A stretch of DNA of 64,000 nt from Smithella sp. (GTDB taxonomy: Bacteria > Desulfobacterota > Syntrophia > Syntrophales > Smithellaceae), in NCBI GenBank assembly GCA_035524255.1, contig DATKPG010000002.1, positions 92,192 through 156,191 of the forward strand, read 5' to 3'. Positions 22,573 through 42,774 of this stretch are shown piece after piece. The notes beneath the pieces were generated by a model. It saw only the letters and a list, made by a program, of their open reading frames with translations. It had not been told where the DNA came from and did not search any database. The translations under genes and the position numbers were made by a program. The first letter of the stretch is position 1; every line of letters starts with the position of its first letter.

Positions 22573-22660
22573 ATTCCAAAACGTTTCAACATGAGGTAAT
22601 GGGGGGTGCGCCGTTTAGGGAATCTGTTATATCGTTTGAACAGTCAGCGAAAGGGGGAGG

Positions 22661-22684
22661 CTCACAAGGCTTATGCCTTGTGAG
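22661..22684 (+). other. perfect 10-bp stem / 4-nt loop hairpin in the acd-etfB spacer
   Basis: CTCACAAGGCttatGCCTTGTGAG, followed by a second 5-bp stem, GGGGCgacgtgaGCCCC. There is no T-tract. Confidence 0.4.
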
Positions 22685-22714
22685 GGGGCGACGTGAGCCC
22701 CTATGATAGGCATT

Positions 22715-24542: not shown

Positions 24543-24563
24543 TTTTCATAAAGGAGTCATGTT

Positions 24564-25676
24564 ATGATTAAATCCAGACTCTGTGATCTGGTCGGCATTC
24601 AATATCCTATCATTCAGGCGGGCATGGGACCTTTCAGCAACAACAAACTTGGCGTAGCCGCGGCCAATGCCGGTGTTCTGGGCTTGTTTTCGACAAGCGG
24701 GCTCTGCAATAAGGACTTTCTGCCGTTTATCTACAGTGACTGGATCAAGAGCGCCGGGGCCGATCCTCAAGACGACATAACGTCTGCGTTGGAGAAATTG
24801 CTCAAGAAAGCATATCTATTGACTAAAGACACAAATGGTGTGTTTGGAATCAATGTGATGGTATCGGCAGAGCTGCTATTTCAGGCACAGATGATTATTG
24901 ATACTGCCATTGGGGTGCGGAAGGCAAATCCGGGCATGGAAAAACACTTTAAGGTTATCTTTACGTCCGCGGGAGATCCTGTGTCCTGGCGCGATAAGAT
25001 AAAGGGAGCTGGTTTTACATGGATGCATGTTGTTCCGTCGGTTAAGGGTGCTCAGCGATGCAAAAAAGCAGGCGTCGATGTTATCGTGGCATCCGGACAT
25101 GAAGGAGGCTTTCACACATCCTGGGAACCGGTTCATTCGATGATTCTGCTGCCCGCTGTTGTGGAAGCGGTTTCCGATGAAAAGACCCTGGTATGCGGAG
25201 CCGGTGGCTTTTGTGACGGTAAAACTCTGGCCGCCGCGCTGGTGATGGGTGCCGACGGTGTGCAGATGGGAACAAGGTTCCTCGCGACACAGGAAAGTGA
25301 TTTCCCCCTGATTTGGAGAAAAGGTGTTGTCAATGCAGGGGACAGGGGGACGCTCGTTGCCCGCGGATTTGTGGGACCGGCGCGCTGGATAAAGAATCCC
25401 CGCAGTGAAGAACACGCCAGAAACACATTGCAGAAATCACCCGGATGTTTTTTGGGAGTTCCGGATGATATGGCATCGATTGATCTATCGTTGATTATGT
25501 TTGAACTCGACTCCATGAAGGCCGCCTATGAAGGCGACGAAGAGAAGGCGCTACTGGCAGCCGGTGAAGTTGCGCAGCGCATCAATGACATGCCCAAAGT
25601 AAAAGATTTGGTGAGGGTTATGGTCAGGGACGCGGAGGATATACTGAAAAGCGTGCAGACAAAGATGCTCGCGTGA
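24564..25676 (+). CDS. NAD(P)H-dependent flavin oxidoreductase (nitronate monooxygenase / FabK-like enoyl reductase family)
   Basis: 'IIQAGMGPFS' and 'GADGVQMGTRFLAT'. Last gene of the acd-etfBA operon. Confidence 0.8.
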   Translation: MIKSRLCDLVGIQYPIIQAGMGPFSNNKLGVAAANAGVLGLFSTSGLCNKDFLPFIYSDWIKSAGADPQDDITSALEKLLKKAYLLTKDTNGVFGINVMVSAELLFQAQMIIDTAIGVRKANPGMEKHFKVIFTSAGDPVSWRDKIKGAGFTWMHVVPSVKGAQRCKKAGVDVIVASGHEGGFHTSWEPVHSMILLPAVVEAVSDEKTLVCGAGGFCDGKTLAAALVMGADGVQMGTRFLATQESDFPLIWRKGVVNAGDRGTLVARGFVGPARWIKNPRSEEHARNTLQKSPGCFLGVPDDMASIDLSLIMFELDSMKAAYEGDEEKALLAAGEVAQRINDMPKVKDLVRVMVRDAEDILKSVQTKMLA

Positions 25677-26099: not shown

Positions 26100-27494
26100 C
26101 TAATGATTATTGTTGCCATTGTGCATCTTTCCCCGTGCCAGCGACGCAAAAACTCCCCCGCTGCAGATGACAGCCAGTGTGGCAAAAATAAATTTGGAGC
26201 TTCTTAATAGAAGAAAATTATTAGCTTCGGAAATAGGATGATCTCCTAAAATAACGGCAAAAATAAGCATGGTGATGCCCATGCTGGACATTTGGCCCGT
26301 AAGCCTCATGGTGCCTAGCGTTGCCGATGCAACACCATAGTATTTTTTTTCCACGGCGCTCATTATGGCGTTGACGTTGGGTGAAGAAAAAAGCGCGAAA
26401 CCGATGCCAAGCAATATAAGGCACAACACAACGTGTTCGATGCTTGTTTTGCCGTCCAGAAAAATCAGCTGTGCAAGACCTGTCACGGTAATGGCCATGC
26501 CGATGGATGAAATAAACTGCGGTTCAAAACGATCGGAGAGTTTTCCGGCGAAAGGTGAAAGTAGGGCCTGCATAACAGGCGCTGCTACAAGAATGATGCC
26601 GGTCTGTGACGGGGTTAGCATTTTAATGTGCTGCAGATAGAGGCTGAGTAAAAAAGTCACTGCAAATGTGGCGCAGTAATTGATCAAAGCGGCTAAATTG
26701 GAAAAAGCAAAAACCTTATTGTTCAGAAACAGATGTATGTTGACTAAAGGAAATGGACTCTTCAACTGCTGAAATACAAATAATGCGAGGAATATGACCC
26801 CTGTGCCGATTAAAAATGCCGCGTTCAATGATGGCAACCGGGAAAAGCCGTACATCATGGCAAAAAGAGAGAATCCATAAATGAGGGATCCGGTAATGTC
26901 AAAACCTTCACCGTTGGTTCCCGAATAATCATCCTTAATTGTTGCGGTGACAATGAGTATAATCATTAAGCCCAACACAACCGTAAAAAGAAAAATGTAT
27001 CTCCATCCCAGATGCTGGGTTAGCAATCCGCCGATAAAAGGACCAATGGTTAGTCCGATATAGACCGCTGCTGTATTGATTCCTATTATTTTACCACGAT
27101 CTTCGAGAGGATAGGCCGAAATCAGCATTGCCGTACCGGTGCTGAAGATCATGGCTCCGCCTATTCCCTGCATGGCCCGCGCGGCAATTAGAAAAAATTG
27201 CGACGGAGACCAGATGCAAAATGATGAAGCTATTGTAAAAATTAATGCTCCATAAATAAAAAATCTTCTTCGGCCGTAAATGTCAGCCAAACGGCCCAGG
27301 GGAATAAGTGTTATTGCGGCCGCCAAAATAAAGGAAGTTGCGACCCAACCCAGCGACAGGGCTGTCATGGATAATTCTTTGGCTATGGCAGGAAGGGCTA
27401 CGTTGACTGCTGAACCCATAAACGGCGTCAGAAAAGAGCTTAATGTAGTAACCAGAAGAATATACAATTGTTTTTTATTGGCGGCTATCTTCAT
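26100..27494 (-). CDS. MFS transporter, DHA2 (EmrB/QacA-like, about 14 TMS) family
   Basis: 464 aa, with the 'LGRLADIYGRRR' MFS motif A. Confidence 0.85.
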   Translation of the reverse strand: MKIAANKKQLYILLVTTLSSFLTPFMGSAVNVALPAIAKELSMTALSLGWVATSFILAAAITLIPLGRLADIYGRRRFFIYGALIFTIASSFCIWSPSQFFLIAARAMQGIGGAMIFSTGTAMLISAYPLEDRGKIIGINTAAVYIGLTIGPFIGGLLTQHLGWRYIFLFTVVLGLMIILIVTATIKDDYSGTNGEGFDITGSLIYGFSLFAMMYGFSRLPSLNAAFLIGTGVIFLALFVFQQLKSPFPLVNIHLFLNNKVFAFSNLAALINYCATFAVTFLLSLYLQHIKMLTPSQTGIILVAAPVMQALLSPFAGKLSDRFEPQFISSIGMAITVTGLAQLIFLDGKTSIEHVVLCLILLGIGFALFSSPNVNAIMSAVEKKYYGVASATLGTMRLTGQMSSMGITMLIFAVILGDHPISEANNFLLLRSSKFIFATLAVICSGGVFASLARGKMHNGNNNH

Positions 27495-27513: not shown

Positions 27514-28977
27514 TTAATCACGGGGGAAAGTTTTTTTATAGAGTTTGGAGAAATTATCCTTACCGCAGGCCATCATCAATGTGAGAGGCATGACTTTTTT
27601 TGCCTGTTTGAGCATTTTTTCCGTGAGGTTTCTGACATCCCACTGGGCGTGCAGATCAGCGCGCAGACGTGCCAGATGATACATTTCACGGGCGTTGAAT
27701 TTCATCAGGACCCGTTTACGGTGGGCATTGGTCAAAACATAAGCGGCGGCAGCAGGCGCTTTTTTCAGGATTTGTTCGTAAATGCTTACTGTCTGACTCA
27801 TAATTTTCATAAAATCCTTTTGCCGGCCGATGGCTTTTATGGAAGGAGGCACGGTTACGCCCAAATCCGGATTATAATCCTGGACTATTATCGTGGACAT
27901 ACGGTGTCTTTTTAGCTGAGCAAAGCAACTGGAACTCAATATCAGTTCAAATTGCAGATCAACATTTTCCATTTCCCTGAGCACCTGGTCGTGAGACTTA
28001 ATATTGGCGAAAGCCGTTTTGAACAAAGCATTTTTATCCTTCGAGGTCATATGGCCTGCCATGTTTAAACACCTGGTGTAATCTATACCGGATGAAGTAA
28101 ACAACAGGGCGGCGGCAATGCGGTCATCGGACGCCGGGGAAAAAGACACTAAACGCACATCAGATGATTTTGTTGAACCCTTGAGATATTTTTTCGATGC
28201 AACAGAGGCCTGATGACGCAGATTTTTTCCGGTGAATTTGTCGTAATCGGTGGCTTCGGTGTAACGGATAAGAGAAGGTGCGATTTCTTTTGTTGCCGCG
28301 AACAGATTGCGGCTGTATTCCTGAGCCTCAGCAAGGGGGTTGGCGGCGAGGCGCCTGAGCATTAATTCAAGATTGCGGGCATTTATGGTCATGCCCAGTT
28401 GTGTTTGGGTGGCCATGGATATGGCGTAGCGGGCGTCTTCCTTTGCCCATCCTTCCAGCATGGACTTGTTTGCCGGATTTTCTGCCAGCTCTTTATTTTG
28501 ATCAAAGACAAATGGTCTTAATTGTGCGTAAAGCTCATGATAAAATTCATTTTGCATGGTGACGGTTGAGACAAACAGATCCGTCAAATTGGCCTGTTTT
28601 ATTTCTTCAGGAATCACGAAATCCTTGTTGAAAAGAACATAACGCTGCGATTTTTCCGTAAAAGAACATAACCGGAACTTTTCTATTTCCTCCACAAGAA
28701 ATCTCGATACGCCTATAACGTCAATATTGAATACGGCGTGTTCCGCGACGGAACTGTGCCCCATGTCAAAAACGATATTGCGGTTGGATTGACGCGCCTT
28801 TTCCACTTCATCGCGGGATATTTCGCGCAGTTCATTGACAGGCTTCGGGCTGCGGCTGATCCGGGCGTAGGCCGCGGATATGGTTTCCGGCGTTAAGTCC
28901 TGTGTATATCCGCTTTTATCTTTTAACGCGCGGATCATGTCGTAATCAATATTATAGCCGGCGAGAAGAATTTTCAT
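27514..28977 (-). CDS. thyX: FAD-dependent thymidylate synthase ThyX, fused double-domain form
   Basis: Two ThyX-like halves. The N half has 'HSSVAEH' and 'SFTEKSQRY'. The C half has 'LKRHRMST' and 'NAREMYHLARLRADLHAQWDVR'. Confidence 0.85.
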   Translation of the reverse strand: MKILLAGYNIDYDMIRALKDKSGYTQDLTPETISAAYARISRSPKPVNELREISRDEVEKARQSNRNIVFDMGHSSVAEHAVFNIDVIGVSRFLVEEIEKFRLCSFTEKSQRYVLFNKDFVIPEEIKQANLTDLFVSTVTMQNEFYHELYAQLRPFVFDQNKELAENPANKSMLEGWAKEDARYAISMATQTQLGMTINARNLELMLRRLAANPLAEAQEYSRNLFAATKEIAPSLIRYTEATDYDKFTGKNLRHQASVASKKYLKGSTKSSDVRLVSFSPASDDRIAAALLFTSSGIDYTRCLNMAGHMTSKDKNALFKTAFANIKSHDQVLREMENVDLQFELILSSSCFAQLKRHRMSTIIVQDYNPDLGVTVPPSIKAIGRQKDFMKIMSQTVSIYEQILKKAPAAAAYVLTNAHRKRVLMKFNAREMYHLARLRADLHAQWDVRNLTEKMLKQAKKVMPLTLMMACGKDNFSKLYKKTFPRD

Positions 28978-28980
28978 AGT

Positions 28981-29787
28981 TTACAAACTCACAAGTTCCA
29001 CGCGGCCCAGCGTGCGTCCGAGAAATCGTTCGCCGATGGTCTGGAAGCGGTAAGGAACATCACTTACACAAAACAGATAATCCGGCGGCGTGTTATTGGT
29101 ATTGCCGATATTTTGGTTTTTAACCAAATCGGCGGCTATATCAGCCATTGCTTCCGCTGAATCAATAAGATTTACGTCTTTTCCCATGGTATCCCGCAGT
29201 AATGGTTTTAAAAGAGGATAATGGGTACAGCCCAAAACCAGCGTATCGATTTGTTCAGCGATAACCGGTTTTAAATATTCCTGAGCGATAAGCTTTGTTG
29301 CCGGATGATCAAACCATCCTTCTTCCACCAGAGGCACGAAAAGGGGGCAGGCCTGCGAAAAAACCGTCGCTTCCTTATCCAGCAGATGGATAGCCCGGGC
29401 GTAGGCGTTACTGTTGATCGTTGCCGGCGTTCCGATGACTCCGATTGATTTCTTGCGTGTGTTTTTAGTTGCCATACGGGCGCTGGCGTCAATGACTTCC
29501 AGCACAGGTACAGGGGACAGGTTAACTATTGTCTGATAAGCAACTGCCGCCATGGTGTTACAGGCAACGATTAGCAATTTTACATTTTTTTCGATCAGGA
29601 ATTCAGTAATTTGCGCCGCATAACGGTTTATTGTTTCCACCGATTTGATACCGTAGGGTACACGCGCGGTATCGCCGAAATAAATGATGTTTTCAAAAGG
29701 CAGGCGTTCCATCAAAGAACGAACGACCGTGAGGCCGCCAATACCGGAATCGAATACGCCTATGGCGCGATTAGTTTTTAAATTCAT
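28981..29787 (-). CDS. murI: glutamate racemase
   Basis: 'GVFDSGIGGLTV', 'VACNTM' and 'LGCTHYPLL' (the two catalytic Cys). Confidence 0.92.
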   Translation of the reverse strand: MNLKTNRAIGVFDSGIGGLTVVRSLMERLPFENIIYFGDTARVPYGIKSVETINRYAAQITEFLIEKNVKLLIVACNTMAAVAYQTIVNLSPVPVLEVIDASARMATKNTRKKSIGVIGTPATINSNAYARAIHLLDKEATVFSQACPLFVPLVEEGWFDHPATKLIAQEYLKPVIAEQIDTLVLGCTHYPLLKPLLRDTMGKDVNLIDSAEAMADIAADLVKNQNIGNTNNTPPDYLFCVSDVPYRFQTIGERFLGRTLGRVELVSL

Positions 29788-29995: not shown

Positions 29996-30808
29996 TTAAA
30001 GATATATTTTACTTTTCTGTTTTTGCATGCTCTCACCCGTAATTTTTTCCATTTCTATCTTGAACGACCAGCTGTCGGAGATGTCATTGATTCTCAAAAC
30101 ATTTTCAGGGCAATTGTTTATGCAATCAAAACAGGCGATACATTTTTCTTTGTCGGCTTCACCGGATTTGGCTTTCATGGCTCCGGTGGGACATGATTCC
30201 TCGCAAACCAGACACATGCCGCATTCGTCTCCGCCTCTGGTCGGGAGCTGTGTGAGCACGTTAAATTTAAACGATTCAAGAGAATCAAGCTGTTCTTCCG
30301 TGAAATGGGTTTGCTCCAGGATCGCCTTGTCCTCACCGGTAAATCGCTTGTATGTTTTTCTGGCATATTCTTTTGCCATTTCAAAACAGGATTCATCCGG
30401 TTGATCTTCCATAGCTCTCCGGCCGCGACGGTTGAAAGCATAGAAGCCCGTAAACTCCGCGGAGGATACAATGATAAAGTTCTGATTTCCTAAAAGTTGC
30501 CCTGTGGAATAATGAATCGGGTGAATGCCAAATCCGCCATAGGTGAAGAAAGTTGAACATTTTTTACCCTGTCCATTCAGGGTTATGATCCAATCTTTTA
30601 CTACTTTTGGAGCCCGCCAGGAATGAATAGGCACTCCAAATACAACCGCGTGATAAGGCTTGAAATCAATTGTTCTTTGTCTATTGGCATGGGAAGTTAT
30701 ATCATACATGCTGACTTGGCTTCCCATTTTTGCGAATGTTTCTCCAACGACCTTTGCGATTTTTCCGGTGATTCCTGTGGCTGAAAAATACAAAATCAAC
30801 AACTTCAT
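29996..30808 (-). CDS. flavodoxin-like domain fused to a 2x[4Fe-4S] ferredoxin domain (EFR1-like)
   Basis: 'LILYFSATGITGKIA' flavodoxin N-terminus. C-terminal 'CGMCLVCEESCP' and 'CIACFDCINNCP'. Confidence 0.75.
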   Translation of the reverse strand: MKLLILYFSATGITGKIAKVVGETFAKMGSQVSMYDITSHANRQRTIDFKPYHAVVFGVPIHSWRAPKVVKDWIITLNGQGKKCSTFFTYGGFGIHPIHYSTGQLLGNQNFIIVSSAEFTGFYAFNRRGRRAMEDQPDESCFEMAKEYARKTYKRFTGEDKAILEQTHFTEEQLDSLESFKFNVLTQLPTRGGDECGMCLVCEESCPTGAMKAKSGEADKEKCIACFDCINNCPENVLRINDISDSWSFKIEMEKITGESMQKQKSKIYL

Positions 30809-30852: not shown

Positions 30853-32118
30853 TTACACTTTAAAGCTGGCCAGGCCGCTTATGTCTAACGTAGACAGATA
30901 GTCTTTTACCGTTTCAGCGCGGCGGATTTGAATAACTTCACCATTTTCTCTTAACAATAATTCAGCCGAGCGAAGCTTGCCGTTGTAATTGAAGCCCATG
31001 GCAAATCCATGCGCGCCGGCATCATGAATAACAATGATGTCGCCTTGCGAAAGCTTCGGCAGTTTACGGTCAATGGCAAATTTATCGTTGTTTTCACAAA
31101 GCGATCCTGTCACGTCATAAACAACATTACGCGGTTTGTTTTCCTTGCCCATGACGGTGATGTGGTGATAAGCGCCATAAAGAGCCGGCCGCATCAGATT
31201 GGCCATGCAGGAATCAAGACCGGCAAATTTTTTATAAGTGTCCTTGATATGTAAAACACGGGAAACCAGATAGCCGTAAGGACCTGTAATATAGCGGCCG
31301 CATTCCGTAAAAAGTTTAACGGGGGCAAGGCCGTTGGCAACAATAATTTGTTCATATTTTTTTCTGATACCAAGGCTCATGGCCTTTAAGTCTAATCTTT
31401 TTTGTTCCGGCCGGTAAGGTATGCCCACGCCGCCGCCGATATTAACAAATTCAAATTTGATTTTCAGTTTTTGTGAAATTTCCGCAATGATCTGAAATAA
31501 TATTTCCGCGGTTTCCACAAAATAAGCGGCGTCGAGTTCATTGGACGCGACCATCGTATGAATGCCGAATCTTTTGACTCCTTTATCCTTGCATATCTTA
31601 TAACCCTTAAATAACTGCTCGCGCGTAAAGCCGTATTTTGCTTCCTCGGGATGGCCGATAATATGATTTCCTTTTTTCAACCGGCCGGGATTGTAGCGGA
31701 AGCAAATCAATGAAGGAAGTCCCGCGTACTTTTCAAGATAGTCAATATGACTGATATCGTCTAAATTGATGATAGCTTTTAATTTCTTTGCCAGTAGAAA
31801 ATCCTCTACGGGCGTGTCATTGGAAGAAAACATAATTTCTTCGCCTGTAATACCGGTTTTTTGCGCCATGATCAGTTCCGAAAGCGAACTGCAATCGGCG
31901 CCATAACCTTCCTTGTGAAGAATTTTCATCAGATAAGGATTAGGCGCAGCCTTGACGGCGAAGAATTCCTTGAAGCCTTCATTCCAGGAAAAGGCTTTTA
32001 TAAAATCGCGCGCGTTTTCACGAATAGCTTTTTCATCGTAGATGTGAAAAGGCGTCGGATATTGCTTTATGATTCTTTCGATTTGATTTTTTGTAAAAGG
32101 CACCAGCTTTTTGGGCAT
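30853..32118 (-). CDS. type III (alanine-racemase fold) PLP-dependent decarboxylase, diaminopimelate decarboxylase-like
   Basis: 'FAVKAAPN' (PLP Lys), 'NIGGGVGIPY', 'CENNDKF' and 'HDAGAHGFAM'. ATG at 32118 with SD GAGGAGAG. Confidence 0.75.
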   Translation of the reverse strand: MPKKLVPFTKNQIERIIKQYPTPFHIYDEKAIRENARDFIKAFSWNEGFKEFFAVKAAPNPYLMKILHKEGYGADCSSLSELIMAQKTGITGEEIMFSSNDTPVEDFLLAKKLKAIINLDDISHIDYLEKYAGLPSLICFRYNPGRLKKGNHIIGHPEEAKYGFTREQLFKGYKICKDKGVKRFGIHTMVASNELDAAYFVETAEILFQIIAEISQKLKIKFEFVNIGGGVGIPYRPEQKRLDLKAMSLGIRKKYEQIIVANGLAPVKLFTECGRYITGPYGYLVSRVLHIKDTYKKFAGLDSCMANLMRPALYGAYHHITVMGKENKPRNVVYDVTGSLCENNDKFAIDRKLPKLSQGDIIVIHDAGAHGFAMGFNYNGKLRSAELLLRENGEVIQIRRAETVKDYLSTLDISGLASFKV

Positions 32119-32232
32119 CAAGCTCTCCTCGGCTAAACAAAGTAATTTTACGTGAAATATATAAGTAAAATAAATTTACGGTAAAAAAGGAAATTTATCA
32201 ATATTATTTTGAGGAATTGAAAGATATTTATA

Positions 32233-33966: not shown

Positions 33967-34452
33967 TTATTTAAGGGTCTTAGAGTAAATAATTTTACTG
34001 TCGCCTTCGGTATAAAAATTTTTTAGAAAAGCTTCCTGATGAAAGCCGCAGCTTTCATAGAACTTGTGAGTCGGTTTGTATTGGTCCCTTGATGATGTTT
34101 CCACATATATTTGTTTTCCGCCCGCGGCCGCAATGAGCTTTTCCGTTTCAGCCATAAGCAGCTTTCCCAATCCATGCCCGCGCATATCTTTTAAAACAGC
34201 TATCCAGTAGATATCGTAACTGAAGTGAGTCGCGGGAACAAGCCCGTAGCAAGTGTATCCGACCACGCGGTTTTCTTTTTCGGCAAATAAAAACTGATAG
34301 GAGCTGTCATGGGGCTGTGTCAGCTTTTCTTCCGCCAGTTCCAGCGCGATGTCTATTTCCTCGGAGGAAAAAAAGCCGCTGGATTTTACAATACCGGCAA
34401 TGGCTTCGATATCGGAATGTTGTATTTGTTGACGATAAATAAAGTCACTCAT
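33967..34452 (-). CDS. GNAT family N-acetyltransferase (about 161 aa)
   Basis: Acetyl-CoA motif A 'MRGHGLGKLLM'. Last gene of the kamA operon. The start is ATG 34452 or TTG 34464. Confidence 0.8.
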   Translation of the reverse strand: MSDFIYRQQIQHSDIEAIAGIVKSSGFFSSEEIDIALELAEEKLTQPHDSSYQFLFAEKENRVVGYTCYGLVPATHFSYDIYWIAVLKDMRGHGLGKLLMAETEKLIAAAGGKQIYVETSSRDQYKPTHKFYESCGFHQEAFLKNFYTEGDSKIIYSKTLK

Positions 34453-34460
34453 AAAAATAA

Positions 34461-34700
34461 TCAACTTTGCGGCAAGCTATAACGAAATGTAAAATAAACC
34501 CGCCGACCAGGCAAAGCTAGGGCCCCGAGAAAATCAAATTTTAATGGTTGCTTCATGTACATGATGGTCAAACCGGCGATATCCTCACTGAATAATATTA
34601 CAAATAATAAAGGTTTGCTATTGAAATATTTAAGATGACCGTACCAGGCGAAAGCCATGAATAAGTTGAAACAAAAAAGAAATACAATGGTTGTTAACAC
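34461..34700 (-). pseudogene. DUF486/DMT-like small membrane protein with an in-frame internal deletion (probable remnant)
   Basis: It keeps 'NLFMAFAWYGHLK' and the C-terminal 'PLKFDFLGALAL', as I recall them from DUF486. It lacks the roughly 30-40 aa central 'FEY..QVPANR' segment. 79 aa versus about 110-120 aa. Confidence 0.45.
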
Positions 34701-34719
34701 AAACTCTAAATTCCTGAAA

Positions 34720-35703
34720 TTATTTCAATGCGTTATTGATGATCCAACCGATAGCTTCGTGATATTTTATCTTTGCATTTTCCAGTGCGGCGGCAAACCC
34801 TGCATCAGGCGACAAACAGGGATTGGAATTAATTTCCAATACCCACGGGTTCCCGTTATGATCCACCCGAAAATCGACGCGTGCGTATCCGCGTAAAGAA
34901 AAAAGGTCCCAGCAGCGCAAAGCGACTTTCCTTAATTCCGATATCAGATTCGCATCTTTTTCCGGGAAATCATATTTTCTTATTGTATTATTATATTCAA
35001 AAGAATCCGCGATCCATTTGGCTTTATAATCGACAATTTTGGGTTTGTCCGGCGCATAATCCTGAAATAACATTTCCGCTATGGGCAGTACTTCGACCCC
35101 TTCTTTTCCGGATATAAGAGCAACATTAAATTCCCTGCCGTCAATATAAGCTTCAGCATAGCAGGAGCCGCCGAGCTTTTCCCTGCGGCGGCTCATTTCC
35201 TGCAGAAGTTTTTCTTTATTGGTGTAGCTGATAAATGAGTTTTCATCCAGGCCGATTGAGGCGTGTTCCCAGGAAGACTTGATTAAATATGTAGCCGCGG
35301 TATCCATTGAGGAGCCCTGCCCTTCCTGATCCATCCAGGCCGGAGTGGCAATATAGGCATTGTGCATGATTTTTTTGGACAGGGGTTTGTTCGATGTCTG
35401 AAATACGGCCTGTGTGCCGCAGCCGGTGTAAGGAATCTGCAGAATATCCAGTATGGCGGGAGCAAAATAAATCAAACTGCCTTTGGAGTTCAGAGTTTCC
35501 ACAATATTGAAAACAGCCAGCGGCTTTAATGATTTCAACATGGTTATCGTATTATTCAAATTGAGTTCAAAAGGCAAAAGAACGGTATCATAATTAAGTG
35601 TTCCCAGAGCCTGCGCGATAGAATCGGCCTGCAAAAGACAATCAAGTTCATCTTCACTGGCATCCGGCAAAATATCGCTGTGCAGAATAACTATTTTTTT
35701 CAT
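34720..35703 (-). CDS. ATP-grasp enzyme, D-alanine--D-alanine ligase family (second of a pair)
   Basis: 'GREFNVALISGK' and 'VLEINSNPCLS'. About 327 aa. The start lies 5 nt after the stop of the upstream paralog. Confidence 0.8.
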   Translation of the reverse strand: MKKIVILHSDILPDASEDELDCLLQADSIAQALGTLNYDTVLLPFELNLNNTITMLKSLKPLAVFNIVETLNSKGSLIYFAPAILDILQIPYTGCGTQAVFQTSNKPLSKKIMHNAYIATPAWMDQEGQGSSMDTAATYLIKSSWEHASIGLDENSFISYTNKEKLLQEMSRRREKLGGSCYAEAYIDGREFNVALISGKEGVEVLPIAEMLFQDYAPDKPKIVDYKAKWIADSFEYNNTIRKYDFPEKDANLISELRKVALRCWDLFSLRGYARVDFRVDHNGNPWVLEINSNPCLSPDAGFAAALENAKIKYHEAIGWIINNALK

Positions 35704-35708
35704 GAAAA

Positions 35709-36707
35709 TTATTTCCTGGATCGTTTAAAAGCTGATTCAATGATAGCGCTTATTAAATCGTGATAACTCATCCCGATTTTAGAACATAAAATGGGTAAAT
35801 CCGAGCGAACGGGATTTAATCCGGCGAGAGAATTGACTTCCATGAAATGCGGCACATGATTGGAGTCAGACCGCAAATCAATACGCCCGGCGTCTTTTAA
35901 ATCCAACCCGTGCCATGCCATAAGCGAAATTTCCATCGCTTGCCGGGCTTCGGCATCGTCAACCAGAACATACTGAACCAGTTTTTCATAGTGTTCTTTG
36001 TTTTCATACGAGTAGGCGTTCAGTTCCGCGTCCGGACGGAGAATGATTTCCATTGCTCCGAGAGCGCGGGCATCCTGCCCGGTTCCTAAAATACCCACGG
36101 TAAATTCGCGACCGGCAAGATATGTTTCGACCAGCATCGGCTGATTGAAGGTCTGTAACAGGTGTTTGCAGACCACGCACAATTCTTCATGGTTATTGGC
36201 TTTTGACGCCGCCGTTATCCCCTTGCCCGTTCCTTCAGCGATTGGTTTGGCAAATACGGGAAAAGGAAGGTTGACTTTATCCACGTCATCTTCACATGTG
36301 ACTACAGCAAAATCAGGTGTGGGTATTTTTAAATCGCGGAGCACATGCTTGGTCATGCCCTTCTGGAGGGAGATAGCGTGACCGAGCGGATCCGAAAAAG
36401 TGTAGGGGATGTTATAGGCTTCCAACAGGGCGGGAACTTGCGCCTCACGGCCGAAACCATACATGCCTTCGGCAATGTTAAAAACAAGATCCCATTTGTT
36501 TCCCGCGACAAGACGTTTGGCCAGAGATTTTATGTTGCCAATTCGATCAGCTTGAAAACCGTTGTCTAATATGACCTTTTCAATAGCGTCTATGGTATCG
36601 GGAAGATCGAATTCCGCTGTTTCTTCCAGACCATATCCTTCGTTTAAATAGTCGTCGCGCAGATCATAGGTTATGCCAATTTTCAGTTTTTGACCCACGC
36701 GACTCAA
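35709..36707 (-). CDS. ATP-grasp enzyme, D-alanine--D-alanine ligase family (first of a pair)
   Basis: 'FAKPIAEGTGKGI', 'GREFTVGILG' and 'FMEVNSLAGL'. TTG start (or GTG 36698). Confidence 0.8.
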   Translation of the reverse strand: MSRVGQKLKIGITYDLRDDYLNEGYGLEETAEFDLPDTIDAIEKVILDNGFQADRIGNIKSLAKRLVAGNKWDLVFNIAEGMYGFGREAQVPALLEAYNIPYTFSDPLGHAISLQKGMTKHVLRDLKIPTPDFAVVTCEDDVDKVNLPFPVFAKPIAEGTGKGITAASKANNHEELCVVCKHLLQTFNQPMLVETYLAGREFTVGILGTGQDARALGAMEIILRPDAELNAYSYENKEHYEKLVQYVLVDDAEARQAMEISLMAWHGLDLKDAGRIDLRSDSNHVPHFMEVNSLAGLNPVRSDLPILCSKIGMSYHDLISAIIESAFKRSRK

Positions 36708-36746
36708 TTTTAAATTACCTGCACTCCGCTATAAAATTCTGACGAT

Positions 36747-38054
36747 TTAATGTATATCTTTCAATTTTGCATGATTGTCGGGGTAACGGAAAATATTGCC
36801 TTCATAATTGCGCAGCAGCAAAGCGCCGTTTTCCCAGCCGACAGCGTATTCTGGAAGCAAAGGAATTTTCCCGCCGCCGCCGGGTGCGTCAACAACATAA
36901 GTAGGCACAGCATAGCCTGTCGTGTGCCCGCGCATGCCCTGAATAATTTCCAGACCCTTGCTTATGGGCGTTCGGAAATGAGACGAACCGGGAATAGGGT
37001 CGCACTGATAAAGATAATAAGGACGGACTCTGATTTGCAGTTGGCCGTGAACTAATCTGGTCATGGTTTCAATGTCGTCATTTATATCTGCAAGCAGGAC
37101 GGTTTGGCTGCCCAGGGGAATGCCGGCGTCAGCCAGCCTGATACAGGCGGCGCTCATCTCCGGGGTCAGCTCTTTGGGATGAGTTATGTGAATGCTCATC
37201 CATAAAGGATGATATTTTTTCAGCATAGCCGTCAGGGCCGGCGTTATTCTCTGGGGCAAGACAACAGGTACTTTGGTGCCGATTCGTATAAGTTCGACAT
37301 GCGGTATTTTGTGCAGCCTCATTAACAGCCATTCCAGTTTTTCATCGGACAGGGTTAAAGGATCGCCGCCGGAAAGCAGTACATCCCGGACATTTTTATT
37401 GCAGGCGATGTATTGAATAGCCTTTTCCCATTTTTCCAGGCTGATCAAATGATGCTTGCTCCGTTCAATAATGCGGGAACGGGTGCAATAGCGGCAATAA
37501 GTGGAGCAACTGTCGGTTACCAGAAACAGCACGCGGTCAGGGTAACGATGAATAATGCCCGGCACGGGAGAATCCGCATCTTCGCAGAGAGGATCTTCCT
37601 CTTCCCCTTCGGTATGCAGGCATTCATCCACCACGGGCACAACACAGCGGCGCAGGGGATCTGAAGGATTATCAGGATTAAGCAGGCTGGCATAATACGG
37701 GGTTATGGAAACGGGCAAGGCTCCTGAATGATGCATCATGGCCTGACGTTCATTCTCTGAAAGATGGATGATGCTGGATAAGGTATCTACTTCTCTGATG
37801 GCGTTACGCAACTGCCAGTGCCAATCAAACCATTCCAGGCGGGTAATGTCGGGATAATTTTGTTCTCGGAAGATGCGGGAGCGGGTGGAATCTTTAAAAG
37901 GAAATAAAACTCTCTCTGACTTTTGTTTGATCGGATACGGAGACATCTCAGCTTTGAATAACAAAAAGTCACTTACATTATTTTCAGCATTAACAAGACC
38001 GGTCGATGGACCAGGAGGTTCCTCCTCCTCTTTAAACAGGGTCTCGCTGTCCAT
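36747..38054 (-). CDS. kamA: KamA-family radical SAM / PLP aminomutase, lysine 2,3-aminomutase-like
   Basis: 'CSTYCRYCTRS' (CxxxCxxC), 'WQLRN', 'YYLYQCD' and 'VVDAPGGGGKIP' (PLP Lys). SD is AAGGAGGA. Confidence 0.88.
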   Translation of the reverse strand: MDSETLFKEEEEPPGPSTGLVNAENNVSDFLLFKAEMSPYPIKQKSERVLFPFKDSTRSRIFREQNYPDITRLEWFDWHWQLRNAIREVDTLSSIIHLSENERQAMMHHSGALPVSITPYYASLLNPDNPSDPLRRCVVPVVDECLHTEGEEEDPLCEDADSPVPGIIHRYPDRVLFLVTDSCSTYCRYCTRSRIIERSKHHLISLEKWEKAIQYIACNKNVRDVLLSGGDPLTLSDEKLEWLLMRLHKIPHVELIRIGTKVPVVLPQRITPALTAMLKKYHPLWMSIHITHPKELTPEMSAACIRLADAGIPLGSQTVLLADINDDIETMTRLVHGQLQIRVRPYYLYQCDPIPGSSHFRTPISKGLEIIQGMRGHTTGYAVPTYVVDAPGGGGKIPLLPEYAVGWENGALLLRNYEGNIFRYPDNHAKLKDIH

Positions 38055-38577
38055 TTGTTCCTCCTTTTGAAGGTTCCCCTCCCGTAAAATTATTTTGTAA
38101 TAAAAAAATTACAAAATCTTAATTATGGAATGTACTCATACAAAAATATTTGTCAACACTTTTTTGCAATTTTGTCAAAAAAAATAAAAAAATTTTTCAT
38201 GAACGGTATCACCGGGGAAAAATGTTTCTGATTCTCAGGTGAATTTGAGAAGGCTTTATGATCAGGATACATTCTTTATCACGCATCATATAAAAATACT
38301 CAAATTGCGCAAACGCCCGTAGAATCTGCATCAGCGCAGATTGGAGACATTCTCGGCAGAAACAAGAAAGCTCTTAAGAAGACGTAAATCGTTTTTAATA
38401 AACAGATCGGAGTATCTGTAATACCGGATTATAAAAAAATTGATCCACGAAACGGCGGGAATCGATTTTATTTAAAAGCGGGACGATTTTTGTTAACCGA
38501 AAAAAGAAATAGGCAAACTAAAGGTATTTTAGTAAGACGGAATATCGTTTGAGACGAAATCGTTATGGGGATTGGCC

Positions 38578-39351
38578 ATGCCAGAATTGCCTGAAGTAGA
38601 GACTTTGAGTCGTCAACTGCATCAAAAAATATGCGGGCGAAAAATATTATCCTCAACAGTATATGATGATAAGTTGGTTCATATCAAAAATGTCAGGGGA
38701 AGAAGAGTGATTGCTGTTGAACGTGACGGCAAGATGATAGACATTTGTCTTGATGATGGTAATTCCATATCAGTACATTTGCGCATGACGGGAAGATTTC
38801 TCTGGCAGGAAAATGCCGCAAAGCCAAAACATGGCCGTTGGAGGATGGGGTTTGATACGGGCAATCTCTTTTTAATCGATCCCCGCCGTTTTGCGACGGT
38901 CACAAAATTAAAGAAAGTTAAAAGCGATCCCGGCAAGGACATTTTAAAAAAATTTGATTTTAAGGGTTTTGTAAAAAATTATGGAAGCCGCAAGACAAAA
39001 GTCAAATCTTTAATTATGGATCAAAGAGTTTTATCCGGTATAGGCAACATTTATGCCTGTGAGATATTATTCAAAGCGGGAATTCATCCCGAACGTGCAG
39101 CGGCTACTTTAACGGAAGGTGACTGGAAAAAGCTATTTCATCATGCCAAAGAATTATTAAAGGCAGCAATTCAAAAAAGAGGCACATCAATTTCCGATTG
39201 GCGCGATCTTTCCGGATGCAGGGGTGAAAATCAGTATGAATTAAAAGTTTACGGGCAGGAAGGAAACATTTGTTGCTTATGCGGGAAAGTCATCGCCCGG
39301 ATAAAACAGGGAGGACGCAGCACGTTCTACTGTCCCTGTTGTCAAAAGTGA
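38578..39351 (+). CDS. mutM: formamidopyrimidine-DNA glycosylase
   Basis: 'MPELPEVE' N-terminus (catalytic Pro2), H2TH 'GIGNIYACEILF', and a C-terminal CxxC...CxxC zinc finger. Confidence 0.92.
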   Translation: MPELPEVETLSRQLHQKICGRKILSSTVYDDKLVHIKNVRGRRVIAVERDGKMIDICLDDGNSISVHLRMTGRFLWQENAAKPKHGRWRMGFDTGNLFLIDPRRFATVTKLKKVKSDPGKDILKKFDFKGFVKNYGSRKTKVKSLIMDQRVLSGIGNIYACEILFKAGIHPERAAATLTEGDWKKLFHHAKELLKAAIQKRGTSISDWRDLSGCRGENQYELKVYGQEGNICCLCGKVIARIKQGGRSTFYCPCCQK

Positions 39352-39880: not shown

Positions 39881-40483
39881 ATGACTACCGAGAAACCAGT
39901 AATGCCAGAAAAATTAAAAGAACGACTGTATCCCGTAGTTTTACGACAATTTTCCATGAAAGATTTCCACGCAGTCAATATACGCGATATATCGAAAGAA
40001 AGTGGAATCAGTTCAGGGACAATATATAAATATTATTTTTCCAAAGAAGACCTTCTTTTTTCAATTATTGATGAAAAATTGCGTAATCTGGCGTCATTGT
40101 TGAGGATGCATATTGCAGGAATCGAAGATATACGTGAAATGTTCAGAAAGTTGTTCTGGGTCACGATGAATTTCTTTGACGAAAACCCCGATCTTGCGAT
40201 TACGGAATTTATTACGGTCCCCTTGAAAAGCTTTATGGCCAGCAAATCTTATAAAAGAGAATCGGAGATAGATATATTAAATGAAATAGTCGAGAAAGCA
40301 AAGAAAAAGGGAGCGGTTATATCAGATATTGAAAACAATTATTTTGTCGATCTTTACATGATGATAACCCAGAGGCAAATACAAAACTGGTATGTCCATG
40401 GAATGAAATGGAAACTTGCCGATACAATAAATAATTTTTTCGATTTCTTCTGGAAAGTGGTGGCTCCTTTGAGAGTAAAATAA
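39881..40483 (+). CDS. TetR/AcrR family transcriptional regulator
   Basis: N-terminal HTH 'VNIRDISKESGISSGTIYKYYFSKEDLL'. Confidence 0.9.
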   Translation: MTTEKPVMPEKLKERLYPVVLRQFSMKDFHAVNIRDISKESGISSGTIYKYYFSKEDLLFSIIDEKLRNLASLLRMHIAGIEDIREMFRKLFWVTMNFFDENPDLAITEFITVPLKSFMASKSYKRESEIDILNEIVEKAKKKGAVISDIENNYFVDLYMMITQRQIQNWYVHGMKWKLADTINNFFDFFWKVVAPLRVK

Positions 40484-40596
40484 TCGCCGTGATAATTATT
40501 ATTAAAAGGCAAATATTAAATATATAATAAATACAATAATATACAGAATATTGATTCTGTAATTATAATAAATTTACTATTGCATGGAGATGCTCA

Positions 40597-42774
40597 ATGG
40601 AAAAGATGGATATTCTGGAACAAGCTAAATCTCAAAAACGAACAACATTAACGGAGGCGGAAGCAAAGGAAGTTTTAAAACAATATGGCATTCCGGTAGT
40701 TGAAGAAAAAAACGTCCATACTATAGAAGAAGCAGAAATTGCAGCGGAACAATCAGGGTATCCTGTTGTTGTAAAAGGCTTGGGATACCGTCTAACGCAT
40801 AAAACAGAAAGAGGTTTGGTTAAACTGAGTTTAAAAAACAAGGAAGATGTGCGTTCTGCGGCAATAGATATAAAGGAAGCTGCCGGAAATGATTTAGAAG
40901 GTTTTTTAATTCAGCCGATGCTTGACGGAAAAAGAGAGTTTGTTGCCGGGCTTTTCCGCGACAAGCAGTTTGGCGCTACGATTATGTTTGGATTAGGCGG
41001 GATTTTTACAGAAGCAATTGGGGATGTTGTCTTTCGTTTGGCGCCTCTTGATGAAAATGAAGCGCGAAAAATGATTGACGAACTGCATGCCCGGAAATTA
41101 CTTGGCGCGTTTCGCGGGGAGAATGTCCCGGATAAAGACGCGTTGATTAAAACGCTTGTAGGTCTGTCCAGAATAGGCATGGAAATACCGGATATAAAGG
41201 AAGTAGATATTAATCCATTACTGGTGACTGCTGAGGGCAAGGTCACGGCGGTTGATGCCTTGATAGTTTTAGGAAAAACAACAGATCAAAAAGAACCGCC
41301 TTTGCCGATAGATCCTAAAAGTATCGGAAATTTATTATATCCGAAATCGATTGCCTTTGTCGGCGCGTCTGCAAATATTAGCAAATGGGGACATTTATTA
41401 TTTTCTAATGTTATTGCGGGAAAATACCAGGGCAAAGTTTATCTTGTGAATCCACAAGGAAAAAATATCGCCGGCACTAAAGTTTTTAAATCCGTAACTG
41501 ACATTCCTGATGTGGTAGACCTTGCTGTTGTTACGGTCCCCGCAGACAAGGTTTTATCTTTAATACCTGAATTTGAAACAAAAGGGATAAAAAATGTATT
41601 GCTTATATCTTCCGGATTCGGAGAAACAGGGGCGCAAGGCAAAATTTTAGAAGATGAACTGGTAGAAAAAGCGCGGAAAGCAGGAATTTTAATTTTAGGT
41701 CCTAATACGATGGGAATATGTAATCCTTATATATCTCTTTATTGCACCGGTCCCCATGTTAGACCCGTTGCAGGAAGCACTGTTTTGCTTGCACAGTCCG
41801 GTAATCTGGGTACGCAGATATTGGCATTTGCCGTAAAAGAAGATATAGGAATACGCGCTTTTTGCGGGTCAGGCAATGAAGCGATGATTACCATCGAAGA
41901 TTACATGGATGGGTTTGAAATTGATGAAATGACCAAAACGGTGGTCCTGTACGTTGAAAGCATTAAAAATGGCCGTAGATTTTTTGAATCAGCAAAGCGC
42001 GTTGGAAAAAGAAAACCGGTTATTGTCTTAAAGGGAGGCAGGACATCTGCAGGCGCCAATGCTGCAGCCAGCCATACCGGAGCAATGGCCTCTGATGTTA
42101 AGGTATTTATGGCTGCTTGCCGCCAGGCAGGTATTGTGCAAGCAGAAATCCCTATGGACCTGCTGGATTTTTCGGCGGCATTTTCTTCATTGCCTTTACC
42201 CAAAGGCAATAAAGTTGGTCTTTTGACTTTAGGGGGAGGATGGGGTGTTGTCGCGTCAGATTTATGCGAGGAAAATGGTTTAATAGTGCCAAAATTGTCT
42301 GAAGGAGTAATAGCAAGCATTGATAAATTATTACCGCCATTCTGGAGTCATGCTAATCCAGTAGATGTTGTGGGTGATATGAATGCAGAAACATATATGA
42401 AGATTCTCGAAGAACTGATTCGATCTCCGGAATGTGATGCGATAATACATATGGGCATTATAGGAAGACAACTTATGGTAAAAGCGACAATAGAATCAAC
42501 TATTGTGGTAGATAAGAAATATGATTCTAAATTTCTGGAAGATTCTTTGCGTTATTTGGAAAATTTTGAAAAGCAGACAATTAATCTGACCGTTCAATTG
42601 ATGGAAAAATATAATAAACCGATAATCGGAGTTTATTTACTAAATGATGATAAAACGCGAATGATCACTAATGTAAATGACTACAAATATAAGGGCGTAA
42701 ACTTTATTACACCTGAGAGAGCGGTTAAATCACTGGCCAAAATGTACCAATATTCAAAATGGTTGAATGGTTAA
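40597..42774 (+). CDS. ADP-forming acyl-/acetyl-CoA synthetase, fused beta(ATP-grasp)-alpha(CoA-binding/ligase) order
   Basis: The N-terminal 230 aa are an ATP-grasp ('GYPVVVKG...', 'VDINPLLV'). They are followed by 'SIAFVGAS...KWGH', 'GPNTMG' and 'ASHTGAMAS' (phosphohistidine loop). Confidence 0.85.
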   Translation: MEKMDILEQAKSQKRTTLTEAEAKEVLKQYGIPVVEEKNVHTIEEAEIAAEQSGYPVVVKGLGYRLTHKTERGLVKLSLKNKEDVRSAAIDIKEAAGNDLEGFLIQPMLDGKREFVAGLFRDKQFGATIMFGLGGIFTEAIGDVVFRLAPLDENEARKMIDELHARKLLGAFRGENVPDKDALIKTLVGLSRIGMEIPDIKEVDINPLLVTAEGKVTAVDALIVLGKTTDQKEPPLPIDPKSIGNLLYPKSIAFVGASANISKWGHLLFSNVIAGKYQGKVYLVNPQGKNIAGTKVFKSVTDIPDVVDLAVVTVPADKVLSLIPEFETKGIKNVLLISSGFGETGAQGKILEDELVEKARKAGILILGPNTMGICNPYISLYCTGPHVRPVAGSTVLLAQSGNLGTQILAFAVKEDIGIRAFCGSGNEAMITIEDYMDGFEIDEMTKTVVLYVESIKNGRRFFESAKRVGKRKPVIVLKGGRTSAGANAAASHTGAMASDVKVFMAACRQAGIVQAEIPMDLLDFSAAFSSLPLPKGNKVGLLTLGGGWGVVASDLCEENGLIVPKLSEGVIASIDKLLPPFWSHANPVDVVGDMNAETYMKILEELIRSPECDAIIHMGIIGRQLMVKATIESTIVVDKKYDSKFLEDSLRYLENFEKQTINLTVQLMEKYNKPIIGVYLLNDDKTRMITNVNDYKYKGVNFITPERAVKSLAKMYQYSKWLNG

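Follow-up and report, generated by a model that had tools for sequence, protein, structure and literature searches.

A block of five closely packed open reading frames (ORFs), all on the minus strand, lies near the middle of a 64-kb stretch of DNA (the window) from a Smithella sp. of the family Smithellaceae (contig DATKPG010000002.1). The first gene encodes a KamA-type radical-SAM aminomutase. It is followed by two ATP-grasp ligases related to D-alanine–D-alanine ligase (Ddl), here called AG1 and AG2, by the remains of a small transporter gene and by an acetyltransferase of the GNAT family. The five ORFs are as follows (aa, amino acids):

36747-38054, minus strand: kamA, 435 aa, with the Pfam domains LAM_C and Radical_SAM
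35709-36707, minus strand: AG1 (ATP-grasp ligase 1), 332 aa, Pfam PF07478 (Dala_Dala_lig_C) at 2.5e-25
34720-35703, minus strand: AG2 (ATP-grasp ligase 2), 327 aa, Pfam PF07478 (Dala_Dala_lig_C) at 9.2e-17
34461-34700, minus strand: a decayed gene of the DUF486 (DMT_6) family of small membrane transporters, 79 aa, Pfam PF04342
33967-34464, minus strand: GNAT, 165 aa from a TTG start or 161 aa from the ATG at 34452, Pfam Acetyltransf_1/7

The gaps between the genes from kamA to the DUF486 ORF are 39, 5 and 19 bp, and the GNAT gene then either overlaps this ORF by 4 bp or follows it after 8 bp, depending on its start. The start codon of AG1 is also ambiguous, being either TTG at 36707 or GTG at 36698. 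The order, strands and spacings of the five ORFs had been described in a first-pass annotation made from the sequence, and the ORF list confirms them exactly. That annotation proposed that the block encodes an uncharacterized pathway to a product derived from beta-lysine, under the control of an operator upstream of kamA. The proposal survives in part. Co-conservation of the genes, ligases that are not Ddl, the lack of a matching known pathway and invariant lysine-binding residues all support an uncharacterized pathway of KamA, ligases and GNAT; the case for the operator is weak. We put at a little better than even the chance that kamA, AG1, AG2 and GNAT, with DUF486 where it is present, form an uncharacterized biosynthetic module for a small acetylated conjugate containing beta-lysine, be it an amide or an (iso)peptide.

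KamA is closely similar to the lysine 2,3-aminomutase (LAM) of Clostridium subterminale (PDB 2A5H; 450 bits, ~60% identity over 362 aligned residues). Alignment with this structure bears out the motifs picked out in the first-pass annotation, namely the iron–sulphur cluster, the pyridoxal phosphate (PLP) lysine and two aspartates. The sequence CSTYCRYC aligns with the CxxxCxxC iron–sulphur motif, and the equivalents of Arg134, Asp293, Asp330 and Lys337 are an R, the D of YQCD, the D of VVDAPGGGGK and a K. Asp293 and Asp330 are presumably the residues that bind the lysine substrate, and we take them to be replaced by Lys and Asn in glutamate 2,3-aminomutase. As the equivalents of both are conserved, the earlier argument from these residues was correct. 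The iron–sulphur cysteines, the PLP lysine and the equivalents of R134, D293 and D330 are, moreover, invariant in 93/93 KamAs linked to the cluster, which argues for a lysine-type substrate as had been proposed. The most likely activity, judged from these residues, is the conversion of L-lysine into beta-lysine.

Scores against family models place KamA close to, but outside, the AblA enzymes. Its 362 bits on TIGR00238, the model of the KamA subfamily, exceed the cut-off of 199, and it falls below the cut-offs for AblA (TIGR03820; 498 against 525.4), glutamate 2,3-aminomutase (422 against 650), arginine 2,3-aminomutase (390 against 600) and EpmB (261 against 369.3). All of the 25 diverse cluster KamAs that were scored lie just under the AblA cut-off; the best has E = 1.9e-151, or ~504 bits as estimated by comparison with the window KamA (498 bits at 1.8e-149). 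There are also structural differences from the clostridial enzyme, whose zinc ligands we take to be Cys268 and cysteines near the C-terminus. The equivalent of Cys268 is Asp in the window KamA and is never Cys in 93 homologues, and the chains stop ~9-15 residues past an RYPD motif that aligns to about residue 367 of 416. At the other end is a variable extension of ~65 residues. The KamAs of the block thus appear, from the alignments, to be a subfamily that has neither the inter-subunit zinc site nor the Clostridium-type C-terminal domain, and they may not share the known tetrameric state. The most fitting description seems to be a subfamily that is sister to AblA/KamA and lies outside the AblA equivalog.

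Lysine fermentation in Clostridia and Fusobacteria also begins with a KamA, and the window enzyme might likewise open the 3,5-diaminohexanoate route of lysine catabolism (the pathway is listed in PMC8674449). We find this scarcely credible. Pfam analysis of the window genes between 21.4 and 44.4 kb found no beta-lysine 5,6-aminomutase, 3,5-diaminohexanoate dehydrogenase, cleavage enzyme or ammonia lyase, and none of the other enzymes of the route recurs among the neighbours of the block in related loci. The presence of ATP-consuming ligases suggests biosynthesis instead.

The two ligases share only 24% identity with each other. Among PDB entries, they match only Ddl/Van structures, and their family profiles do so at E = 1e-30 (AG1) and 1e-27 (AG2). 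They are nevertheless not ordinary members of that group. The best NCBIfam Ddl model (NF002378) has a cut-off of 243, against which AG1 scores 149.7 bits and AG2 105.6; the scores on other Ddl/Van models are lower still. Individual residues were compared by aligning five sequences of each ligase with Escherichia coli DdlB. Residues K97, K144, E180, K215, R255, D257, E270 and N272 (DdlB numbering) are invariant in both AG1 and AG2, and as the catalytic residues are all invariant, both proteins can be expected to bind ATP and to produce an acyl-phosphate. The D-Ala recognition residues of DdlB have changed. In AG1, S150 is T, Y216 is E and L282 is D, with S281 kept as S; in AG2, S150 is A, Y216 is W and S281-L282 is A-G. 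The replacements are invariant within each ligase family. Both families also have an invariant Glu in an FN(I/L)xE motif, located in the region corresponding to that of His63 in DdlB, where the alignment is ambiguous. AG2 has in addition an extended conserved loop, KW..SFEY..T.R, and weakly matches the TTL family in Pfam.

By their conserved residues, AG1 and AG2 are therefore predicted to be competent ATP-grasp enzymes but not ordinary Ddl. The possibility that either is a standard D-Ala-D-Ala ligase was considered and is rejected on the combination of sub-cut-off Ddl scores (150 and 106 bits against 243) and replaced D-Ala residues, so this element of the first proposal stands. The acidic residues in the acceptor site of AG1 would suit a cationic partner, for instance lysine, beta-lysine or a diamine. 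Beyond these two ligases, no DdlB-like match in the window is better than E = 3.9.

An AG1 homologue of 50% identity is also found in a Spirochaetota metagenome-assembled genome (MAG) at L039:8001-8966. There is no kamA match in the 8 kb upstream of it; the gene is preceded by genes for a V4R-domain protein and a PlsC-type acyltransferase, and the contig ends ~290 bp past it. From this context, the AG1 family may have uses outside the block.

The ancestry of the ligases raises the question of the cell envelope. Their closest solved relatives are all Ddl/Van enzymes, and ATP-grasp enzymes that attach amino acids as side chains to peptidoglycan precursors, such as D-aspartate ligase, are well known, so that the pair might make a beta-lysine dipeptide or a side branch on a peptidoglycan precursor or another envelope polymer. 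An Asp/Glu racemase-family gene 4 kb downstream would be in keeping with this, although its linkage is known from the window alone. However, the Ddl substrate residues are replaced, the block has no conserved association with a Mur ligase, transpeptidase, flippase or any other envelope gene, and neither the GNAT nor the APAH-like deacetylase found in fuller versions of the block (described later) would have an obvious role there. An envelope function is, in our estimation, quite improbable.

The fourth enzyme, the GNAT, has an intact acetyl-CoA motif, R-x-x-G-x-G (RGHGLG), and matches Pfam Acetyltransf_1/7 at 1e-14. It is distinct from AblB, as the first-pass annotation had supposed, reaching only 23.1 bits on the 266-position AblB model TIGR03827, for which the cut-off is 205.1. 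Its best NCBIfam match is RimI at 57 bits, again below the cut-off. A structural relative is PDB 2R7H (135.6 bits), a structural-genomics entry named ‘putative D-alanine N-acetyltransferase’. No functional study of 2R7H was found in the literature searched, and a scan with its sequence for a cultured carrier returned distant MAG loci only.

Evidence for a single pathway comes from comparison between genomes, which had been suggested as a check at the outset. Two scans were made of contigs representing one genome per species, one with AG1 as the seed and one with an AG2 profile, the latter contributing the best 80 of at least 591 loci. The nearest loci carry Smithella or Smithellaceae labels and have 75-94% protein identity. 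Where at least 2.6 kb of sequence is available upstream of AG2, kamA is present in 93/95 loci and AG1 in 91/95; GNAT is present in 87/96 loci with enough downstream sequence, and all four genes in 69/81 loci with both flanks. The order kamA-AG1-AG2-GNAT is constant. A further scan seeded with the GNAT recovered the full block in 3/5 loci, one of which is the L117 contig, so that two are new. The claim of co-conservation is amply upheld, with the block in ~90% of more than 90 related loci in many phyla and with parts of it fused to one another.

The carriers, which are anaerobic bacteria, fall under at least 10 phylum-level labels (Thermodesulfobacteriota, Planctomycetota, Acidobacteriota, Aminicenantes, KSB1, Krumholzibacteriia, Spirochaetota, Bacteroidota, Dependentiae and Pseudomonadota), although labels attached to MAGs call for caution. 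Labels at lower ranks include Syntrophales, Desulfobacterales, Desulfobulbaceae, Desulfatiglans and Desulfovibrionales, and others include Phycisphaerae and Pirellulaceae (both Planctomycetota), Spirochaetia, Prolixibacteraceae, Rhizomicrobium and gammaproteobacterial MAGs. All or some of the genes are present in MAGs assigned to Syntrophus aciditrophicus (L120) and Desulfatirhabdium butyrativorans (L095). The exceptions to the full block are informative. Two loci (L092 and L123) have kamA-AG2-GNAT without AG1, and two more (L066 and L097) have AG2-GNAT only; in view of these exceptions, AG2 and GNAT are the tightest pair.

Gene fusions link the same enzymes. A phmmer search of 1.84 billion representative proteins, at the level of 50%-identity clusters, gave 966 relatives of AG2 at E <= 1e-30. 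Among the best 150 of these, 25 have the length expected of an AG2-GNAT fusion (489-546 aa; three confirmed by Pfam) and 11 that of an AG1-AG2 fusion (637-731 aa; four confirmed by Pfam). The AG1-AG2 fusions are P0121-P0123 and P0129, and in P0121 the N-terminal half is 50% identical to AG1 and the C-terminal half 42% identical to AG2 by BLASTP. AG2-GNAT fusions are found at L036:9067-10608 and L057:6989-8584 and in P0137, P0142 and P0150. In two loci, L042 and L080, the GNAT is itself fused to an APAH-like deacetylase. The existence of all three kinds of fusion (AG1-AG2, AG2-GNAT and deacetylase-GNAT) argues that the genes belong to one pathway.

These fusions also bear on the plainest alternative, in which KamA and GNAT are an AblA/AblB-type pair making N-epsilon-acetyl-beta-lysine as an osmolyte beside two housekeeping Ddl paralogues. 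A KamA and a GNAT do make this compound in methanogens, and the window KamA scores near the AblA model. However, the ligases are co-conserved in ~90% of loci, they neither reach the cut-offs for Ddl nor keep its substrate residues, and the GNAT is far from AblB (23 bits against 205). The fusions of ligase to ligase and of ligase to GNAT contradict this alternative, and we consider it very improbable.

Fuller versions of the block contain accessory genes that hint at the nature of the product. A gene of the HDAC fold lies between AG2 and GNAT in 21/96 loci. It mostly forms a fusion with the GNAT and often has, at its N-terminus, a degenerate GNAT-like region. Examples are L080:8033-10282 (749 aa), L032:4136-5965 (609 aa) and L042:10612-12132 (506 aa). 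Residues 266-573 of the L080 protein match the acetylpolyamine amidohydrolase (APAH) entries 6PHR, 9GKZ and 3Q9B at 256, 238 and 216 bits, as against 208 bits for HDAC6 and 133 bits for the bacterial protein-type HDAH. APAH enzymes take acetyl groups off terminal aminoalkyl chains, the same chemistry as that of N-epsilon-acetyl-beta-lysine. The ranking of these scores points to an APAH-like deacetylase acting on a small N-acetyl-aminoalkyl substrate, and in the APAH-GNAT fusions one polypeptide carries domains for both the addition and the removal of acetyl groups. Transporter genes are also inserted in the block; those of Smithellaceae are of the DUF486/DMT type, and those of L095 and L125 are MFS genes. 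The accessory deacetylase and transporters, as classified from their sequences, together point to a small cationic metabolite.

One further accessory gene encodes a small metal-binding CxxCxxCC protein (PF03692) of ~170 aa and lies between kamA and AG1 in eight loci, e.g. L124:5516-6034 and L117:5284-5814. One may speculate that this protein assists the radical-SAM enzyme as a metal or redox partner. In clustering of the neighbouring genes, most of the recurrent clusters were antisense shadow ORFs, and real recurrence outside the core was limited to the CxxCxxCC protein and to neighbours shared through lineage-specific synteny (fpg, PhoU_div-Pit, lysA and Lon). Neither the ORF list nor the clustering revealed a conserved small ORF or a target protein or peptide for modification in or beside the block.

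This last result is relevant to a different view of the block, that the ATP-grasp pair attaches beta-lysine to a protein or peptide in the manner of RimK or TTL, with the GNAT writing acetyl groups on that target and the HDAC-like enzyme erasing them. There is a precedent in the beta-lysylation of EF-P, and some of the matches lean the same way: those of AG2 to the TTL family (weak), of the GNAT to RimI (the best in NCBIfam at 57 bits, though under the cut-off) and of the deacetylase to HDAC6 (208 bits). On the other hand, both ligases are nearest to Ddl, a small-molecule enzyme, rather than to RimK or TTL, the deacetylase is closer to the small-molecule APAH than to protein deacetylases, transporters are embedded in the block, and there is no conserved target gene. 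Nor is there an EpmA, and KamA is far below the EpmB cut-off (261 against 369). We regard modification of a protein or peptide as improbable.

The favoured reading, a small acetylated beta-lysine conjugate, can be set out as three steps. KamA, with its conserved active-site residues, would first turn free L-lysine into beta-lysine; in Smithellaceae the lysine might be supplied through the adjacent lysA. AG1 and AG2, competent from the conservation of their residues, would then each form one amide bond via an acyl-phosphate. The substrates are less certain, the most likely options being the coupling of the beta-lysine carboxylate to an amine, of an amino-acid carboxylate to an amine of beta-lysine, or both. 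Lastly, the GNAT would acetylate a remaining free amine, most probably that of the terminal epsilon-aminoalkyl group. In the fuller versions, the APAH-like domain fused to the GNAT would undo this acetylation, and the DMT or MFS proteins would carry the product or a precursor across the membrane. The kamA-AG2-GNAT loci would represent a minimal version of the pathway.

The leading candidates for the role of the product are a compatible solute of the N-acetyl-dipeptide type and a polyamine-like cation. Beta-lysine has three reactive groups and the core contains three group-transferring enzymes, so a fully capped N-acetyl peptide, akin to the compatible solute of the Ngg/NAGGN pathway, would fit. 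A polycationic oligo-beta-lysine or a beta-lysyl-amine with its charge set by acetylation fits equally well. The bolder form of the second idea is a new class of beta-lysine-based polycations (short oligo-beta-lysine or beta-lysyl-amine) that would do the work of polyamines in many anaerobes, with a charge, and through it an activity or toxicity, switched by the GNAT/APAH-like pair. We think this unlikely, if well short of negligible.

Several points weigh against the proposed conjugate pathway. Beyond the enzyme families and their conserved residues, the pathway is something that we infer, and the partner of the ligases may be a carboxylate or an amine on a protein. The loci were picked by similarity to AG1, AG2 or GNAT and are the nearest relatives of the window block, not an unbiased sample. 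Among the 81 loci with both flanks, eight have no detectable GNAT, two have no AG1 and two have AG2-GNAT with no kamA nearby. In the Smithella window itself, the APAH-like deacetylase is absent and the transporter gene is decayed. Carriers occur, furthermore, in samples of peat, groundwater and wastewater as well as in marine ones, so that salt stress is not singled out. The probability that lies outside this pathway and its rivals we leave to explanations that have not occurred to us.

AblA/AblB is the nearest characterized system by gene content. Methanogens and some bacteria use it to produce N-epsilon-acetyl-beta-lysine (Pfluger et al. 2003, as cited in PMC3543383). The two systems have in common a KamA-type aminomutase with the lysine-binding aspartates and a GNAT in the same operon, and among the substrate-specific aminomutase models it is that of AblA on which the window KamA scores highest. 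They differ in the two ATP-grasp ligases, which are an integral and sometimes fused part of the present block, in the optional APAH-like deacetylase, in a GNAT of ~160 aa unrelated to the AblB model, and in a KamA that is below the AblA cut-off and lacks the zinc-site cysteine.

By logic, rather than gene content, the nearest systems are PylB/PylC and Ngg. PylB is a radical-SAM lysine mutase and PylC a Ddl-family ligase, and their product contains an isopeptide bond. The likeness lies in a radical-SAM isomerization of lysine followed by coupling through an amide or isopeptide bond by a Ddl-family ATP-grasp enzyme, whereas PylB is not known to be a KamA/PLP aminomutase, there is a single ligase and no GNAT is known in the system. 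PylC is absent from the PDB sequence matches of AG1 and AG2 at E <= 0.001, so there is no close relationship to it. In the Ngg/AsnO system, an ATP-grasp enzyme joined physically to a GNAT makes an N-acetylated dipeptide, the osmolyte N-acetylglutaminylglutamine amide. The AG2-GNAT fusions share the domain content of the Ngg enzyme. The substrate amino acid of Ngg is, however, a different one, no aminomutase is known to be involved and the ATP-grasp domain is not known to be Ddl-like.

Three other comparisons are useful. Ddl and VanA/B/C share with AG1 and AG2 the fold and all of the ATP-binding and catalytic residues, and provide their best PDB matches, but AG1 and AG2 are far below every NCBIfam cut-off of that group and are linked to kamA in place of a dcw/mur context. 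In EpmA/EpmB, a KamA-family aminomutase similarly feeds beta-lysine to an ATP-dependent ligation; there the ligase is a LysRS paralogue, whereas the block has no EpmA-like gene and no efp nearby, and its KamA is LAM-like. Finally, polyamines undergo a cycle of acetylation and deacetylation by GNAT and APAH enzymes, and streptothricins are acetylated on their beta-lysine chain. The GNAT/APAH-like fusions of the fuller blocks would resemble these in acetylating an aminoalkyl group on a cationic metabolite, and differ in being tied to beta-lysine synthesis and ATP-grasp ligases with no polyamine-synthesis or non-ribosomal peptide synthetase (NRPS) gene. The original contention that no established beta-lysine route matches this gene set thus holds good: the proteins fall outside the models for AblA/AblB, EpmA/EpmB and Ddl, and no matching paper was found. 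Full-text literature searches gave no paper joining an aminomutase, ATP-grasp and beta-lysine, although there may have been an earlier in-silico mention. The novelty is in the combination, which is unreported, widespread and tightly coupled; the enzyme families themselves are familiar.

The region upstream of kamA contains three features:

38129-38156, minus strand: predicted sigma-70-like promoter, TTGACA-16-TACATT, matching 10/12 consensus positions
38092-38117: palindrome ATTTTGTAAT-N6-ATTACAAAAT, with arms of 10 nt that are 100% complementary
38069-38082, minus strand: small hairpin GGAGG/CCUUC just 5' of the Shine–Dalgarno (SD) sequence AAGGAGG, present in both the minimum free energy (MFE) and the centroid structures

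An alignment of 20 Smithellaceae loci shows no variation in the TTGACA or in the core of the -10 box. The palindrome had been taken for an operator. It exists, and at the position given, but it lies ~12 nt downstream of the -10 box, within the predicted 5' leader, and forms the main hairpin of the leader RNA (MFE -14 kcal/mol, z = -3.4). Its arms are kept in the closest relatives only (L001, L002, L005, L011 and L013), which makes the operator reading weak. L008, L010 and L031 have imperfect arms, the changes in the latter two being uncompensated, and L003, L004 and L014 have none. Four more distant Smithellaceae (L016, L022, L029 and L030) have at the same place an unrelated GC-rich hairpin followed by the U-run AAUUUUUU, which looks like a leader terminator. 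Given this hairpin and U-run, the palindrome seems more like an RNA leader structure, and an RNA leader element appears at least as likely as a protein operator.

The 3' arm of the SD-proximal hairpin is also complementary to the SD sequence, and in per-sequence folds the hairpin recurs in most relatives with other arm sequences (GGAAG/CUUCC, CGGAA/UUCCG). Its conservation is suggestive, and the leader (38055-38126) may act as an attenuator or as an element that masks the SD. RNAalifold found no consensus structure in a MAFFT alignment of 18 kamA leaders, so that only the per-sequence folds are informative. Rfam, used permissively on the operon region and at the gathering threshold on the whole window, revealed no riboswitch or known leader and gave only tRNA and a sub-threshold RAGATH-25.

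The transporter gene between AG2 and GNAT was described from the start as a decayed remnant, and comparison with intact relatives proves this right. The 79-aa ORF matches only positions 1-38 of the 104 positions in the DMT_6/DUF486 Pfam profile, and ~36 codons have been deleted internally relative to the intact 115-aa genes in L001, L005 and L012. The gene is intact in ~14 related loci and absent from many others, and there are other remnants in L003 and L013. The remnants measure 240 bp in the window (34461-34700), 150 bp at L003:10041-10190 and 204 bp at L013:10125-10328, compared with 345 bp for the intact gene. From these alignments, it appears that the DUF486/DMT gene is decaying independently in several lineages of Smithellaceae.

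Downstream of GNAT, a 121-bp AT-rich spacer is followed on the same strand by a PhoU_div-Pit pair, a decarboxylase gene of the lysA type and a gene for an EFR1-family flavodoxin/ferredoxin:

30853-32121, minus strand: lysA-type diaminopimelate decarboxylase, TIGR01048 at 299.9 bits against a cut-off of 297.9

The lysA gene directly follows GNAT in L025, L027, L028 and L030 and follows PhoU_div-Pit in most Smithellaceae. Among the related loci compared, none outside the Smithella-like group (Smithellaceae/Syntrophales) has lysA beside the block. It may supply lysine, but its membership of the pathway is uncertain: as the adjacency is limited to Smithella-like loci, synteny alone could explain it. 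The EFR1-family flavodoxin/ferredoxin fusion (29996-30808, same strand) lies downstream of lysA, an adjacency seen in the five closest genomes only, and could be a reductant for the radical-SAM enzyme. On the other side of the block, fpg (formamidopyrimidine-DNA glycosylase, 38572-39351) is divergent from kamA. This arrangement is common in Syntrophales-type loci and not found in other orders, which indicates vertical synteny and not a functional link.

Further afield, a double-length ThyX of 487 aa with two Thy1 stretches (27514-28977) adjoins the Asp/Glu racemase-family gene (28981-29787), and an MFS transporter gene (26100-27494) lies near it. The region 39881-42774 encodes a TetR-family regulator followed by a 725-aa protein of the ADP-forming acyl-CoA synthetase type (ATP-grasp_5, CoA_binding and Succ_CoA_lig), and the region 21388-25676 encodes an acyl-CoA dehydrogenase, the beta and alpha subunits of electron transfer flavoprotein (ETF) and an NMO-family protein. 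The acyl-CoA and ETF genes around the block are typical of the fatty-acid metabolism of syntrophs. A role in anti-phage defence was also considered and is rejected, as no protein has a PADLOC match.

To our knowledge, beta-lysine has few known fates, including the modification of EF-P, lysine fermentation and a handful of NRPS antibiotics. If the proposed pathway is real, it would add a fifth, based on ATP-grasp ligases. The block is not confined to one genome but extends to syntrophs and sulfate reducers, to planctomycetes and acidobacteria, and to several candidate phyla. Its proteins are currently annotated in public databases as ‘D-alanine--D-alanine ligase’, ‘KamA family protein’, ‘GNAT’ or ‘hypothetical protein’, names that hide the pathway, and knowledge of the product would correct thousands of annotations. 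The identity of the product would also define the substrate rules for two new families of Ddl-like ligases, for which the fusion proteins are convenient single-polypeptide targets for biochemistry. The product itself might prove to be a new solute, or a stand-in for polyamines, in anaerobic communities.

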